Sequence record: LC739535.1
Source of the DNA: Escherichia phage phiWec186
Reading direction: 5' to 3' (one strand)
Length of the DNA: 64,000 nt
In this document: one piece after another, positions 56,985 to 64,000 of the stretch
How the letters are laid out: each line of letters starts with the position of its first letter
Position numbering within the stretch: the stretch's first letter is position 1
Position numbers and translations under genes: made by a program
Notes under the pieces: generated by a model
Told to the model about the DNA's origin: nothing
Databases searched by the model: none
What the model saw: only the letters and a program-made list of their open reading frames with translations

Positions 56985-57602
56985 ATGAAGATAGTTTGTG
57001 ATTGGGATCTGGTGGTTGCTCCACTGGATGTTGCTTGGCTGGAATGGTTGGTTAAAGTTAGTGGAGATTGTGTAGGCTTCTCCGAAGCTGTCAAGAATGT
57101 TGACTACGATCTTACTAAATACTTCCCAGGTTTCCGTGAGAAGTTTAACATCGATCCTTACGGCTTTCTGGATAATCCCCATCTCTATGACACGATGGGA
57201 TGTATCAAACCTATGGCTGACTTCTTAGAAGGTATTGTGAAAGAGGGCGATAATGCACTTATTGCAAGTGTGACTAAAGGTGGACACCTTAGCTCAAAAC
57301 ACAAACATGTTTTAAGAACTTTGCCAACCATTGATTTTGGTAAAGGTTCTGGTAACGGTTTCTTTGCCACAAAAGAAAAATACCTGTTGCCTTGTGATAT
57401 TGCCATAGATGATAGGGCAGAAAACCTGTTGTATTTTCCAGATCATGTTGTTAAGATTTATTACAATACGATGTATAAAGATTTGTATTTGGAAGAATTA
57501 AAAAAGAAACCAAACGTAGTTGTCACGGGTTTGTACAATCAAGCAGAAACCTGTTGGCAGGTTTATTCAATGTTAAAAGAACGAGGAGAAATTAATGTCT
57601 AA
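56985..57602 (+). CDS. HAD-superfamily phosphatase, 5'(3')-deoxyribonucleotidase-like
   Basis: N-terminal IVCDWDLVVAP (HAD motif I, DxDxV) and CDIAIDDRAEN (motif IV, DD). Confidence 0.45.
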   Translation: MKIVCDWDLVVAPLDVAWLEWLVKVSGDCVGFSEAVKNVDYDLTKYFPGFREKFNIDPYGFLDNPHLYDTMGCIKPMADFLEGIVKEGDNALIASVTKGGHLSSKHKHVLRTLPTIDFGKGSGNGFFATKEKYLLPCDIAIDDRAENLLYFPDHVVKIYYNTMYKDLYLEELKKKPNVVVTGLYNQAETCWQVYSMLKERGEINV

Positions 57603-58584
57603 TATCAGTGCACAAGTCATCGCCCAATCCATCAACGAAGAAGGACAGATGATCACAACTTTCGAACTGGAATATCCACGCATCATCCATTCGGAACTGA
57701 TGACACACCGCCTATTCTCCCGAAACGCTGCTTCAAGCCGCGCTATTCCCGTCAAGACTTTGATTGAGATGGTTCGCAACGAACCTGCGGCACCTGTTCG
57801 ATTTGGTCAACACCAACCTGGGATGCAGGATCAAGGTGTAGAGTATGATGCTCTCATTGGGGTAGGTTATTCGAGTCGTGAGTGGTGGAATTTAGCTGCA
57901 CTTAGTGCGGCAAACTTTGCAGAACAAATGGCGGAAGCTGGTTACGCGAAGCAGGTTTGTAATCGCCTTCTTGAACCATTCCAAAAAATGAAGACGGTTC
58001 TGACAGCAACCGAATATGAAAACTTCTGGTGGCTACGTGATGATGCTGATGCTGATCCGACTATTGAAGCTTTAGCCAAAATTATGTTTGAAGCCTATGA
58101 AGCTTCTACTCCAGAACTACTGGCTCCAGGTCAATGGCATACGCCTTACGTAGATCATGTCTACGAGAACATTGGTTTGGAAGGTGATGATGTTTGGGTA
58201 TTCAGTGGGTATAGCACTACAGATGAAAATGGCAATACTATCATGCTGTCGCTGGAAGAAGCACTTGCAATCTCTTCTTCTTGTTGCGCACAAGTGAGCT
58301 ATCGTCGTCTGAATGCAACTAAAGATAAAGCTTTGGACATTTATGGACGTTTGCTTACCGGACGTAAAGTTCACGCTTCCCCTTTTGAACATCAGGCAAC
58401 CCCAATGAAAAAAATGGATTTGTCAGGCTTAAAACGACAGGAGCATGGTGTTAATATTCCTCCGTTCCCGATTTCTTGGGAACCAGGCGTTACTCATGTA
58501 GATCGTAATGGTCAATTCTGGTCGGGGAATATGAAGGGTTGGGTACAACATCGTCAACTTTTAGACAATCATACTAAATGGTGA
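57595..58584 (+). CDS. thyX: ThyX-like flavin-dependent thymidylate synthase
   Basis: SELMTHRLFSRNAASSRAI aligns to the ThyX RHR-x7-S signature, with Thr replacing the first Arg. Confidence 0.5.
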   Translation: MSNISAQVIAQSINEEGQMITTFELEYPRIIHSELMTHRLFSRNAASSRAIPVKTLIEMVRNEPAAPVRFGQHQPGMQDQGVEYDALIGVGYSSREWWNLAALSAANFAEQMAEAGYAKQVCNRLLEPFQKMKTVLTATEYENFWWLRDDADADPTIEALAKIMFEAYEASTPELLAPGQWHTPYVDHVYENIGLEGDDVWVFSGYSTTDENGNTIMLSLEEALAISSSCCAQVSYRRLNATKDKALDIYGRLLTGRKVHASPFEHQATPMKKMDLSGLKRQEHGVNIPPFPISWEPGVTHVDRNGQFWSGNMKGWVQHRQLLDNHTKW

Positions 58585-59361: not shown

Positions 59362-61602
59362 GTGATTCGATACGTTACTAAATCAAATGGTAAGACAGAA
59401 GAGTTCAATCCTGAAAAACTGCGTAAATGGTCTGAATTTGCAGCAGGGAAACTGAACTGGTCGGAAATTGAATTAGAAGCTGTGAAACGTTGTTACGATG
59501 GTGTGTCTACTCGTGATTTACATAAAGCTATGATCGCTGCGTGTATTGATAAGAAGACTCAAGCGTACAGTGATATGGCAGGTCGATTGCTTCTCGGTAT
59601 GATTTACAAACAGGCTCACGGGGGATACCACAGTATCCCTTCCCTGTACACTTTCTACCAAGATATGGTGAAGCGTGGACATTGGGCCAAGATGGACTAT
59701 ACCGAAGAAGAAATCAAAGAGATTGGTAAGATTGTCAAACATAACAAGAATCTAACCTACGGTTATTCTGTTCTTCGTCAGATGGCGGATAAATACTTGG
59801 TTCGTGATGCTGTGAATGATGTTGTTCACGAGTCACCGCAATTCCTGTTTATTGGTGTGGCAATGCGTGTTATGGAGATCCAGCCTAAAGATCGTCGTAT
59901 CAACGATATCAAAAAGCTGTACACATACGTAAGTGATCTTCAGATTAACTTACCATCTCCTTATCTGACAACGTTACGTACTCCGATCAAAGGTAGCGCG
60001 TCTTGTTGTTTATTCCGTGCAGACGATACAGCAGAGTCTTTGGCTATTGCAAACTATCTGGCACACGAATATACGTTGAATAATGCAGGGATTGGTGTTA
60101 ACCTCCAAACTCGTGCAACTGGACAGGGTGTTAAGAACAACCGTATCGTTCATGGTGGTCTTCTCCCTTACCTCAAGTGGATGGAAGATAGCGTAGGAGC
60201 TTCTAAACAAGCGAGTCGTGGAGGTAGTGCAACGGTTACGTTCACAATCTTGGAGCCAGATTTTGAAGATCTGATTCGACTGAAGAACCCAACCACTCCG
60301 ATCGATAAGCGTGTTGATAAGCTGGATTACTCTGTTGTTGTAAACCGCTCCTTCCTTCGCCGTGCGGCTAAAGGTGAAGAGTGGATGCTTGTGAGCTGTG
60401 ACGAAGCACCGGAACTTTACGAAGCATTGTACAAAAGTGAAGAAGAGTTCGATGCGGTCTACGATAAAGTTAGTCGCCGTCGCATCAAAAAGAAAATTGT
60501 TAAGGCTCGTGACCTGTTGACTGAAATCATTGTTCAACGTGCAGAAACTGGACGTATTTATATGTTCTTCGCTGACAACGTAAACAATCACAGTCCTTTC
60601 CTGGATACTGTGTATCAGTCAAACTTATGTCAGGAGATCTTTTTACCTACTAAAGCGTTCCATAAAATGACGGATCTCTTTACTGGTGAAAACACAGAAG
60701 ATCAAGAATTGGCTTTATGCTTCTTGTCCTCTATTGTTGCTGGGCGCGTTACGCCGGAGCAATATGAAGATGTTGCGTATTATACTGTATTGACGATTGA
60801 TAACGTTATTGAGACGATGGAATATCCGTTCAAACATAACGAGATCACAGCTAAGGCTCGCCGCTCTATCGGCGTAGGTATTACAAACCTTGCACATTAC
60901 TTGGCAAGCAACTTTGTAACCTATTCTGATCCTTATGCGAAGAAGCTGATGCATGAATTAGCAGAACGTCATTACTTCTGGTTGGCACAAGCCTCTCTGC
61001 GCTTGGCGAAAGAGAAAGGTAATGCCGAGTGGATGGATAAAACTAAGTGGCCTCAAGGTTGGCTCCCTATTGACACCTACGCTAAAGCAGTAGATACTAT
61101 TGGGGACTTTGAACTGAAGCTGGATTGGGAAGGCTTACGTGCTGGTATCATTGAACAAGGTGGTATCCGTAACAGTGTGCTTGCAGCAGTGGCCCCGAAC
61201 GAATCAAGTAGCTTGGTGAGTAATACGACCAACTCACTCTACCCTGTACGTGACACGATCATGTACAAACAGAGTCAGAAAGGTAACGTACTGTTTATCG
61301 TACCAGATTACGAAAAACTGAAAATGTTCTATCAGTCGGCGTGGGATACCCCGTCTAAAGATATTGCCGAGATGTATGGACTCTTCACTAAGTTTACGGA
61401 TCAGGGTATCTCCTGTGATGCTTGGTTAGATTATTCCAAAATGGAAGGTGGACGTTTATCAGTGAAAGCCGAGATGCAATTTATCTTAACATTTGCAAAG
61501 CTTGGTGGTAAATCTCTTTACTACCTGAACAGCCGAACCAAATCAGCGGAATCTATGGCCCAAGAAGATTCTGATGGTGGTTGTGAAGCTTGTAAAATGT
61601 AG
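59362..61602 (+). CDS. nrdA: ribonucleoside-diphosphate reductase alpha subunit (class Ia)
   Basis: N-terminal ATP-cone (VTKSNGKTEEFNPEKLRKW), SNLCQEI active-site region, C-terminal CEACKM redox cysteine pair; GTG start after GGGAGGAG. Confidence 0.85.
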   Translation: MIRYVTKSNGKTEEFNPEKLRKWSEFAAGKLNWSEIELEAVKRCYDGVSTRDLHKAMIAACIDKKTQAYSDMAGRLLLGMIYKQAHGGYHSIPSLYTFYQDMVKRGHWAKMDYTEEEIKEIGKIVKHNKNLTYGYSVLRQMADKYLVRDAVNDVVHESPQFLFIGVAMRVMEIQPKDRRINDIKKLYTYVSDLQINLPSPYLTTLRTPIKGSASCCLFRADDTAESLAIANYLAHEYTLNNAGIGVNLQTRATGQGVKNNRIVHGGLLPYLKWMEDSVGASKQASRGGSATVTFTILEPDFEDLIRLKNPTTPIDKRVDKLDYSVVVNRSFLRRAAKGEEWMLVSCDEAPELYEALYKSEEEFDAVYDKVSRRRIKKKIVKARDLLTEIIVQRAETGRIYMFFADNVNNHSPFLDTVYQSNLCQEIFLPTKAFHKMTDLFTGENTEDQELALCFLSSIVAGRVTPEQYEDVAYYTVLTIDNVIETMEYPFKHNEITAKARRSIGVGITNLAHYLASNFVTYSDPYAKKLMHELAERHYFWLAQASLRLAKEKGNAEWMDKTKWPQGWLPIDTYAKAVDTIGDFELKLDWEGLRAGIIEQGGIRNSVLAAVAPNESSSLVSNTTNSLYPVRDTIMYKQSQKGNVLFIVPDYEKLKMFYQSAWDTPSKDIAEMYGLFTKFTDQGISCDAWLDYSKMEGGRLSVKAEMQFILTFAKLGGKSLYYLNSRTKSAESMAQEDSDGGCEACKM

Positions 61603-61632
61603 CAATACAGGGGCTTCGGCCCCTTTTTTATT
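61603..61632 (+). terminator. rho-independent terminator
   Basis: GGGGC-TTCG-GCCCC hairpin followed by TTTTTTATT. Confidence 0.65.
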
Positions 61633-61643
61633 GAGGAGCGATT

Positions 61644-61982
61644 ATGAGCACACTTATAGTTTTACCTGGAGTAACCCCAATCTACCGACCTGGGTTTAAG
61701 CCTCTGTTGCTTTGCCCTGAAGATTTCACCCCTACTTGGTGTCACCATTATCTTGGTGGACGTGAAATAGCTAACATGCAGATTTGGGAATCTTTTTATC
61801 CAGAAGCCACGGCTTACGCAATAACAAGAGCAAGAAGTGAAGAAACAGTGACTGTTATACTTGGTAGAAGCGTATGGGAAGCATTAGAAGGTTTCTACCG
61901 GAGTAATGGTTTTGAGGAACAAGATATTTTAAACTTAAAAGGTTTTTGTGAAATAGTGGAGGATTTAAATGGCAGCAATTAA
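61644..61982 (+). CDS. hypothetical protein between nrdA and nrdB
   Basis: ORF with GAGGAG RBS. Confidence 0.5.
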   Translation: MSTLIVLPGVTPIYRPGFKPLLLCPEDFTPTWCHHYLGGREIANMQIWESFYPEATAYAITRARSEETVTVILGRSVWEALEGFYRSNGFEEQDILNLKGFCEIVEDLNGSN

Positions 61983-63054
61983 TTTACATAATGAGACTTA
62001 CAAAACAGGTAAATATCCGGTATTCATGGGTGAGCAATTGGGGATCTTTGACTCAATTAATGTGACGTATCCTGAAATGCACCGTCTGTATAAACTTCAG
62101 AAAGCCCAAGATTGGGATGAGAATGAAGTGGATCTTAGTCAGACCCGTAAAGACTTTGTAGCGTGTTCAAAAAACAACTACGATGTTATGATCAAGAACT
62201 TGTCGTTCCAGTGGGAGAATGATTCTCTGGCAAAATCCATCATCACTTTGTTCTCTCCGTTTTTGAGCAACAATGAAGCATGTGCTATGATGATGAAGCA
62301 GAGTGAGATGGAAGTGCTTCACGCTCTAACTTACTCGGAGATTGTTCGCCAGTGTACTCCAAACCCTGTAGAAGTTATTGATCAGATTATGGAGAACGAC
62401 AAGATCTTCAACCGTATGGGTATCATTGCAGAGATCATGGGAGAGTTGGAAGAAGCAGGTCACAAATATGCACTTGGTCTGATTGAAGCTGATGATAAAC
62501 TACGTTTGCTGGTCATGAAAGGTCTGGTAGCCCTGATTGGTCTGGAAGGTATCCAGTTTATCTCTTCTTTCTCGGCAACGTTCGCCTTGGCAGAACAGCA
62601 ACTGTTTGTAGGTGCTTGTAAGCTGATTCAGAAAATCATGTTGGATGAAATCCTGCATGTTAAAATGGACTATGCTGTCATTGATGCTCTGATGCAAGAT
62701 CCTGTGTGGAAGAAGATCTACGAAGATAACATCGAAGAACTTACAACTATTCTGGATACAGTTATCGCTCAAGAAGAGCAGTGGTGTGATTATCTGTTTA
62801 GCGAAGGACGTTTTATCGTTGGGCTGAATGCTGAACTGTCCCGTCAATGGGTGTACTTCAATGCGGCTCCAATTTATCGTCGTTTGAAGATGAAGCACAG
62901 CTTTAAATCTCCTAAACAGAACCCACTACCTTGGATGGACATTTGGTTAAACCCAGATCAGATTCAAGCAGCGGCGCAAGAGATCCAAGTTACAGCTTAC
63001 AAACTGAACTCGGCTAACAAAGATGTTTCTGATGATATGGAGTTTGACTTCTAA
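61969..63054 (+). CDS. nrdB: ribonucleoside-diphosphate reductase beta subunit (class Ia)
   Basis: Di-iron ligand pattern (EVLHALTYSE, LEGIQFISSF, DEILHVKMDY) and C-terminal DDMEFDF tail typical of R2. Confidence 0.8.
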   Translation: MAAINLHNETYKTGKYPVFMGEQLGIFDSINVTYPEMHRLYKLQKAQDWDENEVDLSQTRKDFVACSKNNYDVMIKNLSFQWENDSLAKSIITLFSPFLSNNEACAMMMKQSEMEVLHALTYSEIVRQCTPNPVEVIDQIMENDKIFNRMGIIAEIMGELEEAGHKYALGLIEADDKLRLLVMKGLVALIGLEGIQFISSFSATFALAEQQLFVGACKLIQKIMLDEILHVKMDYAVIDALMQDPVWKKIYEDNIEELTTILDTVIAQEEQWCDYLFSEGRFIVGLNAELSRQWVYFNAAPIYRRLKMKHSFKSPKQNPLPWMDIWLNPDQIQAAAQEIQVTAYKLNSANKDVSDDMEFDF

Positions 63055-63272
63055 TGAAACTTAAATGTGTAGGATTGATCGACACATTCAAAGACGTATT
63101 TGACAAAGGGGCTTCCTATGAAGCCTCGGAGTTAAAGAACGGTTTTTGTGATGTGCATGGTAAACGTCTTAAGAAAAACGGAGAACCTTGGCTTGGTGTT
63201 ATGTCTTGTGGTCATATTGTGGTTAACGGTGTTGCAAAGTTTGAAATCGTAAAGGAGGAAGATAATGAGTGA
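63054..63272 (+). CDS. hypothetical small protein
   Basis: ATG overlapping the nrdB stop. Confidence 0.45.
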   Translation: MKLKCVGLIDTFKDVFDKGASYEASELKNGFCDVHGKRLKKNGEPWLGVMSCGHIVVNGVAKFEIVKEEDNE

Positions 63273-63397
63273 GTTTAGTTTTTGCCCTATTTGTGGTGGT
63301 ACAGGTAATGCCTTAATTAGTGCGGAGCAGTACAGCCCGTGTTGGCATTGTTCTGGTAGTGGTTTGGTAGTTGAAGAAAACAAAGAGGAGGAAAAAG

Positions 63398-63724
63398 ATG
63401 GGGATTGATATCGAATGGAAGATGGTGCAAGGCGCACCATATAAGAAATGGGAAGAAGTGTTTAAAGGCGATCCGCAGATTGAGGATCAATTCGATGGGG
63501 ATTTCAACTGGTTTCTTTACGAAGGTATTGGGTTAGTGAGTGTCTCCCCGTGGTTTGATGCAGATCCTGAAGATTGTGTCTTTGGTATTGAACTTGCGTC
63601 AGGATGCAGCGCACGGGCAATAGATCTCACAAGCTTGGATAAAAAAGCAAACGAGATCTATTTTGAACTGCTTAATAAGTATAATATTGAGACTGAAACG
63701 TTAGTATCACAAAACGTTTGGTAA
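63398..63724 (+). CDS. hypothetical protein
   Basis: ATG after GAGGAGG (the track's longer ORF starts at 63371). Confidence 0.45.
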   Translation: MGIDIEWKMVQGAPYKKWEEVFKGDPQIEDQFDGDFNWFLYEGIGLVSVSPWFDADPEDCVFGIELASGCSARAIDLTSLDKKANEIYFELLNKYNIETETLVSQNVW

Positions 63725-63733
63725 GGAGAACTA

Positions 63734-64000
63734 ATGCGCTATCTGGTAACAGGTGGTCTTGGTTTTATTGGGAGCGCCGTTGTGCGCTCTCTTTGTCAAG
63801 ATCCTAATAACGAAGTTTTTGTCATTGATAAAATGGGCTACGCAGCCGATATTGAAAATGTAGGGGATATCACTCACGCCAAACTAAGCATGACGGATTT
63901 GGCAAACGAAGCACAGGTCAAAAGTTTGGTGGTAGAATGCAACCCTGATTTCATTATTCACTTAGCGGCAGAGAGTCATGTGGACAACTCTATCAAAAAT
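63734..64000 (+). CDS. rmlB: dTDP-glucose 4,6-dehydratase-like NAD-dependent epimerase/dehydratase, N-terminal fragment (continues beyond the window)
   Basis: MRYLVTGGLGFIGSAVVRSL...HLAAESHVDNSI closely follows the RmlB/RfbB N-terminus (GGxGFIGS Rossmann motif and HLAAESHVD). Confidence 0.7.
   Translation, partial: MRYLVTGGLGFIGSAVVRSLCQDPNNEVFVIDKMGYAADIENVGDITHAKLSMTDLANEAQVKSLVVECNPDFIIHLAAESHVDNSIKN

Follow-up and report, generated by a model that had tools for sequence, protein, structure and literature searches.

What is a gene for a nucleotide-sugar dehydratase doing at the end of a ribonucleotide-reductase region in a lytic coliphage? The stretch analysed here, hereafter the window, comprises 64 000 nucleotides of Escherichia phage phiWec186 (LC739535.1), and its right-hand end holds the beginning of rmlB. 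An initial annotation, made from the sequence alone, had described this fragment as a gene for an RmlB-like dTDP-glucose 4,6-dehydratase, following the nrd operon and truncated by the window, and had proposed a role either in DNA glycosylation or in making an unusual sugar for the host surface or the virion. In our view there is about an even chance that rmlB belongs to a functional dTDP-L-rhamnose operon feeding the phage's own soluble glycosyltransferases (GTs), with a phage protein, most probably of the virion, as the acceptor. The gene itself was already known, since the identical GenBank record lists it as rffG, and the full pathway is in the literature: Olsen et al. (2020; PMC7552041) proposed DNA rhamnosylation for these same phages, and the cassette was also discussed by Maffei et al. 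(2021; PMC8594841). What is new here is a roughly 1:1 co-occurrence of rmlC/rmlD with a GT cluster, a deletion of rmlBA running from one Shine-Dalgarno sequence to another, and the recognition of three of the transferases as a mobile cassette.

Within the window the frame runs free of stops for 89 codons to the edge, its translation reading MRYLVTGGLGFIGSAVV...HLAAESHVDNSIKN. The Shine-Dalgarno sequence of the gene overlaps the TAA (63722-63724) of the upstream 108/117-aa open reading frame (ORF), and phage phAPEC8 has the same context before its rmlB. Upstream lie nrdA (59362-61602), nrdB (61969-63054) and then three small ORFs, which agrees with the placement after the nrd operon. Against Pfam the 89 residues match GDP_Man_Dehyd at 5.7e-17 (62.6 bits, cut-off 27) and Epimerase at 9.5e-14, values far beyond chance which point to a nucleotide-sugar enzyme of the extended short-chain dehydrogenase/reductase (SDR) type. 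Residues 7-13 (GGLGFIG) form the NAD-binding Rossmann motif GxxGxxG, and residues 76-84 read HLAAESHVD. The fragment had been said to track bacterial RmlB/RfbB closely; this is true of the motifs GGxGFIG and HLAAESHVD, which are exact, but is somewhat generous for a segment in which 38 of 89 residues (43%) are identical to Salmonella RmlB (PDB entry 1g1a). We rejected the fragment alone as proof of RmlB, as its Pfam matches reach the level of the SDR superfamily only and the complete gene is needed.

The complete gene is available from close relatives. Positions 61000-64000 of the window are 100% identical to the Escherichia phages phiWec179 (LC739533) and phiWec181 (LC739534), members of Phapecoctavirus isolated from Japanese pig-farm sewage, and the last 15 kb of the window show 0 mismatches to phiWec179. 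The full-length Rml protein scores given below are from the complete genes of this 100%-identical phiWec179 genome. The features of the locus are as follows, coordinates beyond 64000 being virtual, that is, in window numbering extended through phiWec179 and outside the window.

61609-61624, + strand: terminator-like GC hairpin with T-run just after nrdA, the last such signal upstream of rmlB.
63723-63729, + strand: strong Shine-Dalgarno sequence AAGGAGA of rmlB, read from the sequence, 4 nt before the ATG at 63734-63736.
63734-64000, + strand: 5' part of rmlB/rffG, dTDP-glucose 4,6-dehydratase; 267 nt, codons 1-89 of 330.
64726 (virtual), + strand: end of rmlB.
64735-65613 (virtual), + strand: rmlA, 292 aa, 8 nt after rmlB.
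65610-66170 (virtual), + strand: rmlC, 186 aa, with a 4-nt overlap (ATGA) with rmlA.
66167-67009 (virtual), + strand: rmlD, 280 aa, with a 4-nt overlap (ATGA) with rmlC.
67006-67266 (virtual), + strand: glutaredoxin gene (grx), with a 4-nt overlap (ATGA) with rmlD.

The initial annotation had placed the rest of any pathway beyond 64000 and had named rmlA/C/D or glycosyltransferase genes as the partners to look for. The three partners follow rmlB directly, each scoring above its equivalog cut-off, and four glycosyltransferase genes are found elsewhere in the genome; the decayed gene without partner enzymes that would have told against the idea is not what the continuation contains, the genes being intact. 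The reported truncation is likewise confined to the window, as the gene is complete (330 aa) in phiWec179. Over its first 6 kb the phiWec181 record matches the phiWec179 continuation without any difference. This record (LC739534.1) starts at window position 63883, inside rmlB, and its two ends overlap by ~148 nt; it carries rmlB as a partial misc_feature (1-844) because it begins inside the gene. The truncation of rmlB is an artefact of the window edge and of the linearisation or assembly of the phiWec181 record, and not gene decay.

The start/stop overlaps at rmlA/rmlC, rmlC/rmlD and rmlD/grx suggest translational coupling. In phiWec179 grx is followed by a T4-type lysozyme gene, phoH and a gene for an HslV-like peptidase. 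After the hairpin behind nrdA, the next convincing one in our consensus scan follows the lysozyme gene (virtual 67935-67954), and nrdB, the small ORFs, rmlBACD, grx and the lysozyme gene look, on this weak evidence, like one transcription unit. The boundaries of the operon are only suggested, because the promoter and terminator consensus scan around the cassette gave a site total not above the shuffled expectation.

The identity of the four proteins was judged against NCBIfam equivalog models with curated cut-offs, in bits, and against solved enzymes:

RmlB: 428.8 bits (cut-off 365.1, TIGR01181) over residues 2-328 of 330; 6e-110 to the solved Salmonella RmlB.
RmlA: 465.7 bits (cut-off 360.65); 2.5e-123 to the closest solved enzyme.
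RmlC: 246.1 bits (cut-off 155.75); 5.7e-62 to the closest solved enzyme.
RmlD: 244 bits (cut-off 224.05); 1.4e-49 to the closest solved enzyme.

All four align end to end with the solved enzymes. The catalytic STDE (123-126) and YSASK (150-154) of RmlB, which lie beyond the window end, align with their equivalents in Salmonella 1g1a, and RmlA (GGSGTRL), RmlC (RGMHFQ, GKLVR, FEYK) and RmlD (STDY, YGLSK) likewise retain their motifs. By these measures the initial reading of the gene as RmlB-like is borne out by the complete ORF, and on sequence evidence the four proteins are bona fide orthologues of the bacterial enzymes which convert glucose 1-phosphate and dTTP to dTDP-L-rhamnose. Literature searches returned no assay of any phage RmlB.

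The rfb/rml clusters of Salmonella, E. coli and Pseudomonas, together with the Enterobacterales paralogues RffH/RffG for enterobacterial common antigen, encode the same four enzymes, with the same predicted chemistry as in the phage. The phage genes differ in being carried by a strictly lytic myovirus within a ribonucleotide-reductase/glutaredoxin operon, in having the order B-A-C-D where E. coli K-12 has B-D-A-C, and in having no adjacent wzx/wzy or O-antigen transferase genes. The phage RmlB, at 330 aa against 355-361 aa for the bacterial enzymes, lacks the short insertions of its enterobacterial counterparts. RmlD matches the Bacillus anthracis enzyme (1.4e-49) much better than that of Salmonella (1.4e-25), and the G+C content of the rml genes (40-43%) matches that of the phage; the cassette is therefore not a recent host capture. 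Recent capture from E. coli was rejected both on the affinity of RmlD to Bacillus and on the presence of the cassette in two phage genera at ~52-70% protein identity.

The cassette is widely conserved. Gene order and site, with grx on one side and the small ORFs that follow nrdB on the other, are shared by phAPEC8, phiWec188, phi92 and the BASEL phage PaulScherrer (Bas60), and the cassette known from Stephanstirmvirinae (phAPEC8 gp166-169, phi92 gp064-067, BASEL Bas60-62) is the same locus as that of the window, with nothing essential differing. A 198-nt ORF which precedes rmlB in phiWec188 and phi92 is absent from the window lineage. In tblastn searches RmlB was found in 209 phage records, 103 of them at ≥60% identity: phapecoctaviruses match at ~93-95% and phi92-like phages at ~62%, and the weaker matches include cyanophages and others. 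Pairwise ratios of nonsynonymous to synonymous substitution (dN/dS) are 0.03-0.23 over the four rml genes (0.03-0.04 for rmlA and rmlB), with synonymous divergence near saturation. All four genes are thus under purifying selection, and the cassette is old within Stephanstirmvirinae, having already been present in the common ancestor of Phapecoctavirus and Justusliebigvirus. It is also mosaic: between phiWec179 and phAPEC8, RmlB (94% identity) and RmlA (97%) are better conserved than the flanking NrdB (88.6%), whereas RmlC (64%) and RmlD (66%) are encoded by divergent alleles (L001 16611-18010 versus phAPEC8 L002 11761-13163).

Some of the matching records name unexpected hosts. Pseudomonas phage PsgM04F (OR584014) has 97.7% nucleotide identity over the locus and 98% in GT3; Campylobacter phage B15 (MG065650) is phapecoctavirus-like, with RmlB at 93.9%; Campylobacter phages A110a (MG065689) and A145 (MG065645) give phi92-like values of 62-70%; and in Acinetobacter phage ABPW7 (OP562383) GT3 has 78% identity. 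On these values the stated hosts of the five records look doubtful, through contamination or mislabelling.

Not all four rml genes are equally constant. At ≥60% identity RmlC is found in 131 phage records and GT3 in 130, but RmlB in only 103, so that rmlB/rmlA are missing in about a fifth of the genomes with rmlC and the GT cluster. Klebsiella phage ZCKP1 and Shigella phage SF1-1 have kept rmlC and rmlD and lack rmlB and rmlA, and ESCO37 has been reported to be without rmlB and rmlA (PMC10269720). Comparison of ZCKP1 (L009 8030-8070) and SF1-1 (L010 7866-7906) with phAPEC8 (L002 9870-9890 and 11745-11765) places the breakpoints of the deletion inside two Shine-Dalgarno sequences. With a slash at the breakpoint, phAPEC8 reads TAAGGAGA/ACTGATG before rmlB and GCGGAGA/GAAAATG before rmlC, and the junction in ZCKP1 and SF1-1 reads TAAGGAGAGAAAATG; the left breakpoint is the rmlB Shine-Dalgarno sequence, and rmlC retains a hybrid ribosome-binding site. 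A different rearrangement is seen in the phi92-like isolate 'cardinal' (L012 5001-5909), in which the HISTD motif common to both proteins is the point of an in-frame fusion between RmlB(1-~125) and the C-terminal part of RmlD; to judge from this isolate, complete loss of the pathway is tolerated at least occasionally.

Such losses are what could be said for regarding the cassette as a non-functional or decaying leftover of a bacterial rfb fragment: the absence of rmlBA from ESCO37, ZCKP1 and SF1-1, and of rmlA and rmlC beside the 'cardinal' chimera, shows that the genes are dispensable in the laboratory. We regard this explanation as barely credible. The frames are intact, every catalytic motif is present and all four scores exceed the equivalog cut-offs; the low dN/dS holds across lineages with saturated synonymous sites, ~100-130 sequenced genomes from two genera have kept the cassette, and in composition it resembles the phage. 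Selection and conservation together already effectively refute this explanation.

The pattern of loss can be set beside host metabolism. All Enterobacterales make dTDP-4-keto-6-deoxy-D-glucose through RffH and RffG for the enterobacterial common antigen (ECA), and hosts have RmlC and RmlD only in strains with rhamnose in their surface polysaccharides. That only rmlB and rmlA are cleanly deleted in a subset of genomes would be explained by redundancy with the host RffG/RffH. RmlC and RmlD would be the essential phage contribution, taking dTDP-4-keto-6-deoxyglucose to dTDP-L-rhamnose, and RmlB and RmlA would act as a supply booster which frees the donor from host flux. The simplest reading, we infer, is that selection acts on the end product, dTDP-L-rhamnose.

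The end product might also matter without entering any glycoconjugate. RmlC and RmlD could divert the host's dTDP-4-keto-6-deoxyglucose while dTDP-L-rhamnose, an allosteric feedback inhibitor of RmlA-type thymidylyltransferases, shuts down those enzymes; the drain of host dTTP into ECA and O-antigen would be stopped, or receptor synthesis starved, favouring synthesis of the A+T-rich phage DNA. The position of the cassette in a deoxynucleotide-supply operon, with nrdA, nrdB, grx, ThyX and a 5'-nucleotidase, and the status of rmlCD alone as the conserved core fit such metabolic manipulation, and PMC8870461 reports that perturbation of RmlA alters mycobacterial dNTP pools. Most of these phages, however, carry their own rmlA and rmlB under strong constraint, which would raise dTTP consumption, and this proposal leaves unexplained both the 1:1 co-occurrence with the GT cluster and the dehydratase-like genes inside homologous GT cassettes described below. 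We consider it very unlikely.

In RefSeq phAPEC8 four adjacent glycosyltransferase genes (gp071-074) lie between the endolysin and primase/helicase genes. Their phiWec179 orthologues (LC739533 125324-128464) share the strand of rml and precede the window start by ~4.5-7.7 kb:

GT1: 187 aa, matching a PHROG glycosyltransferase family only.
GT2: 227 aa, GT-A fold.
GT3: 315 aa, GT-B fold.
GT4: 314 aa, a paralogue of GT3, with which it makes up a GT-B pair.

Against PHROG the four proteins match glycosyltransferase families at 1e-102 to 3e-138, and against Pfam their matches are weak; scans of all four against NCBIfam and PADLOC gave no meaningful match, and no transmembrane-like or hydrophobic segment was seen in any of them. 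The AlphaFold models are of high confidence. That of GT2 (mean predicted local distance difference test score, pLDDT, 87.7) has a minimal GT-A fold with an invariant DDD motif, and its Foldseek neighbours are Sulfolobus turreted icosahedral virus (STIV) A197, vaccinia H3 and the phage teichoic-acid transferase TarP. That of GT3 (pLDDT 94.1) is a GT4-type GT-B enzyme with GlgM, PimB', TarM, the protein O-glycosyltransferases SdgB and Gtf3/GtfC, BshA and PglA as neighbours; neither a T4 alpha- or beta-glucosyltransferase nor EarP occurs among its top 50. The fold searches were rejected as a means of identifying the acceptor, which a generic GT-A fold and a GT4-type GT-B fold do not name.

Just upstream of the endolysin gene and the GT cluster lies a Ter-type stress-response cluster (TerC, vWA-TerF-like, TerD; phiWec179 L008 8787-16008, outside the window), and in the relative L015 (1-3110 and 6313-7134) a Ter-type cluster occurs with TelA and a PRTase_3 phosphoribosyltransferase.

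GT1, GT2 and GT3 have homologues (37-49% identity) that co-occur in very different phages, the triad being common to large lytic coliphages and to temperate phages of Enterobacter, Klebsiella and Pseudomonas. In two large myovirus-like contigs (L014 and L015) the order is GT1, SDR, GT2, GT3, small ORF, primase/helicase and DNA polymerase, and the best NCBIfam match of the SDR is dTDP-glucose 4,6-dehydratase, at 162-171 bits and below the cut-off. The prophages of Enterobacter huaxiensis and Klebsiella variicola (L018 and L019) have endolysin, GT1, SDR, GT2, GT3, HNH, terminase, HK97-type capsid and portal genes, and the SDR between GT1 and GT2 again has dTDP-glucose 4,6-dehydratase as its best NCBIfam match. 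The Pseudomonas silvicola prophage (L017) has GT2 and GT3 immediately before its terminase and head genes, and in that of Pseudomonas alliivorans (L021) GT1, GT2 and GT3 stand directly after the major capsid gene, inside the head-tail operon. The cassettes of these two Pseudomonas prophages have no dehydratase-like gene; Pseudomonas hosts normally make dTDP-rhamnose themselves. The triad is thus a mobile cassette, in several lineages with its own 4,6-dehydratase-like gene, and these contexts would, through guilt by association, tie the transferases to a 6-deoxyhexose donor and to virion production.

On a Trinickia symbiotica contig (L020 9001-10026) a GT3 homologue (43% identity) stands by itself, with neither GT1 nor GT2, in chromosomal surroundings that are not those of a phage. 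It adjoins an invasin/intimin-like gene; this GT-B component therefore also occurs outside phages.

Taken together, these observations fit a scheme in which a functional rmlB opens an intact rmlB-rmlA-rmlC-rmlD operon that has been inserted between nrdAB and the glutaredoxin gene, and dTDP-L-rhamnose would be the donor for the soluble GT1, GT2 and GT3/GT4 of the phage. The acceptor would most likely be a phage-made protein, probably of the virion, rather than DNA, because the homologous triads often carry a dehydratase-like gene and adjoin or enter head-morphogenesis operons. Modification of the virion or surface is compatible with the genomic contexts of the homologous GT cassettes. The acceptor is nevertheless the weakest step of the argument, and a virion protein is a best guess. 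The more specific form of the proposal, that the rml operon feeds a mobile GT1-GT2-GT3 cassette which decorates particles with a rhamnose-containing (6-deoxyhexose) glycan, is put forward tentatively, its chances being short of even.

Several observations weigh against this interpretation. In the phage itself the neighbours of the GT cluster are the genes for primase/helicase and DNA polymerase, those of the rml cassette are nucleotide-metabolism genes, and neither lies in the structural module. GT2 is weakly and locally similar to PHROG 842, the T-even beta-glucosyl-hydroxymethylcytosine (HMC) alpha-glucosyltransferase (3e-7 over ~60 residues), and to the Pfam TET-associated glycosyltransferase TAGT (2e-3, below the cut-off). 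A sequence scan of the structural proteins of the window, uninformative in itself, found no obvious Ser/Thr-rich glycosylation tails. In 'cardinal' the GT cluster persists although rmlA and rmlC are gone, and the co-occurrence of RmlC and GT3 is almost wholly within one viral subfamily and is not phylogenetically independent. Genes beside the head genes of temperate phages can be lysogenic-conversion 'morons'. Literature searches gave no experimental work on the pathway, on rhamnosylated phage DNA or on glycosylated coliphage virions.

Some of these points would favour the first of the two roles originally proposed, in which dTDP-L-rhamnose is moved onto (hydroxymethylated) bases of the phage DNA, as in T-even phages, to evade host nucleases. 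The cassette lies in a DNA-metabolism region between nrdAB and grx, the transferases abut replication genes, GT2 has the weak likenesses just given, and the idea has been published (PMC7552041) and repeated (PMC10844046). As in T-even DNA glucosylation, phage GTs are encoded in the early/middle region near replication genes; T-even phages, however, have a dCMP hydroxymethylase and use UDP-glucose, whereas here no hydroxymethylase is annotated (phAPEC8) and the donor would be a dTDP-6-deoxyhexose. The annotations of RefSeq phAPEC8 and of the phi92 region viewed include no gene for a ThyA-family hydroxymethylase or TET/JBP dioxygenase and none of dCTPase type; for hydroxymethylase and TET/JBP this covers the PHROG-based annotation of phAPEC8 and the surroundings of the cassette in phi92 and PaulScherrer, many of the hypothetical proteins not having been scanned individually. 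The only thymidylate-synthase-like gene is of the ThyX type, annotated as common to rV5, PVP-SE1 and Felix O1.

Sensitivity to restriction points the same way. Faced with restriction-modification systems, phi92-like phages are described by Maffei et al. (PMC8594841) as 'exceptionally susceptible', and this 'despite a putative dTDP glycosylation machinery'; one of them, PaulScherrer/Bas60, carries the full rmlBACD cassette, as we checked in its genome; these are relatives and not phiWec179 or phiWec181 themselves. The GT3 model matches GT4-type enzymes, with no T4 glucosyltransferase in its top 50, and the triad occurs in HK97-like and other temperate prophages in which the 18-21 kb viewed around it hold adjoining head genes and no base-modification genes. 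DNA glycosylation is disfavoured by the annotation, by the restriction-sensitive relatives and by the GT4-type GT-B enzyme, and we rate it as quite unlikely; for a global modification of the DNA, too, the evidence points to unlikely. A sparse or sequence-specific modification may be compatible with the weak likeness of GT2 to PHROG 842.

The prophage cassettes also bear on remodelling of the host envelope, in which the GTs would act on undecaprenyl-linked intermediates of O-antigen, ECA, lipopolysaccharide (LPS) core or capsule and mask or alter the receptors, leading to superinfection exclusion or to progeny that are not trapped on debris. By established biochemistry dTDP-L-rhamnose normally serves as donor for O-antigen and other surface polysaccharides, the Foldseek neighbours of GT3 include enzymes with wall teichoic acid or lipid-linked acceptors (TarM, PimB', PglA) and those of GT2 include TarP, and in temperate prophages the cassette could be a conversion module. 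These phages recognise ECA/N4 glycan receptor (NGR), LPS core and capsules with many tail fibres (PMC8594841; PMC11990801). Set against this, the phage is strictly lytic with a short cycle, the cassette is accompanied by no flippase, polymerase, initiating phosphoglycosyltransferase or membrane-anchored protein, the GTs are without hydrophobic segments, and the prophage cassettes are in the late (lysis/head) region and not near integrase or immunity genes, the usual site of serotype conversion. Envelope remodelling is, on balance, unlikely.

For a virion acceptor there are partial precedents. Soluble GTs of the mycobacteriophages Che8, Corndog and Myrna have been proposed to decorate the phages' own capsid or tail proteins (Freeman et al., 2023, as cited in PMC11256854 and PMC12363180). 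Distant homologues of GT2 lie at the right end of 163 mycobacteriophage genomes (tblastn, 23-29% identity, E 1e-5 to 8e-8), in the same genome region as the transferase genes of Che8; the matches are to cluster-F-like mycobacteriophage transferases only. Direct BLASTP of GT2 against Che8 gp109 and gp110 and of GT3 against gp108 gave no similarity (E ≥ 0.23), a further point against the virion interpretation; an identification of GT2 as a Che8-type virion-glycosylation enzyme was rejected on this result, and the comparison is kept as an analogy only. The mycobacteriophages have, as far as seen, no nucleotide-sugar pathway of their own. Viruses that encode both the synthesis of activated rhamnose and the GTs for their own particle are exemplified by Mimivirus, with its UDP-L-rhamnose enzymes, and by PBCV-1, with its capsid glycans. 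The pathways of these giant viruses and chloroviruses start from UDP-glucose, use a bifunctional epimerase/reductase and are of eukaryotic type; they are likened here by description.

Phapecoctaviruses and phi92-like phages are among the coliphages of broadest host range and have repeatedly been used in therapeutic and biocontrol cocktails, and all carry the complete or core activated-sugar pathway together with several GTs. If their particles do bear a rhamnose-containing glycan, this would be the first system of virion glycosylation to be described in phages of Gram-negative bacteria, extending the phenomenon from actinobacteriophages, and its donor sugar would be independent of the host O-serotype, since the phage brings rmlCD and usually rmlBA too. 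Such a coat would influence recognition by antibodies, gut stability and possibly self-adsorption. A sparse modification of DNA or a change in host surface glycans would instead bear on defence evasion or superinfection exclusion.

Some neighbouring genes of the window deserve brief mention. Between nrdB and rmlB, a 47-aa ORF (63265-63408; L001 14266-14409) contains two CxxCxGxG motifs, CPICGGTG and CWHCSGSG, which resemble the zinc-finger repeat of DnaJ; its phi92 counterpart, gp070, is annotated as 'putative DnaJ chaperone'. The ThyX-like protein (57595-58584; 329 aa) is matched by Pfam Thy1 over residues 21-173 only (9e-9) and has a long unexplained C-terminal extension, and the gene upstream of and overlapping it (56985-57602) encodes an NT5C-like 5'-deoxynucleotidase. 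Ten clustered tRNA genes (Met x2, Ile, Pro, Gln, Gly, Thr, Tyr, Ser and Arg) on the minus strand at 40506-42563 separate the early/middle genes from the terminase end of the structural module.

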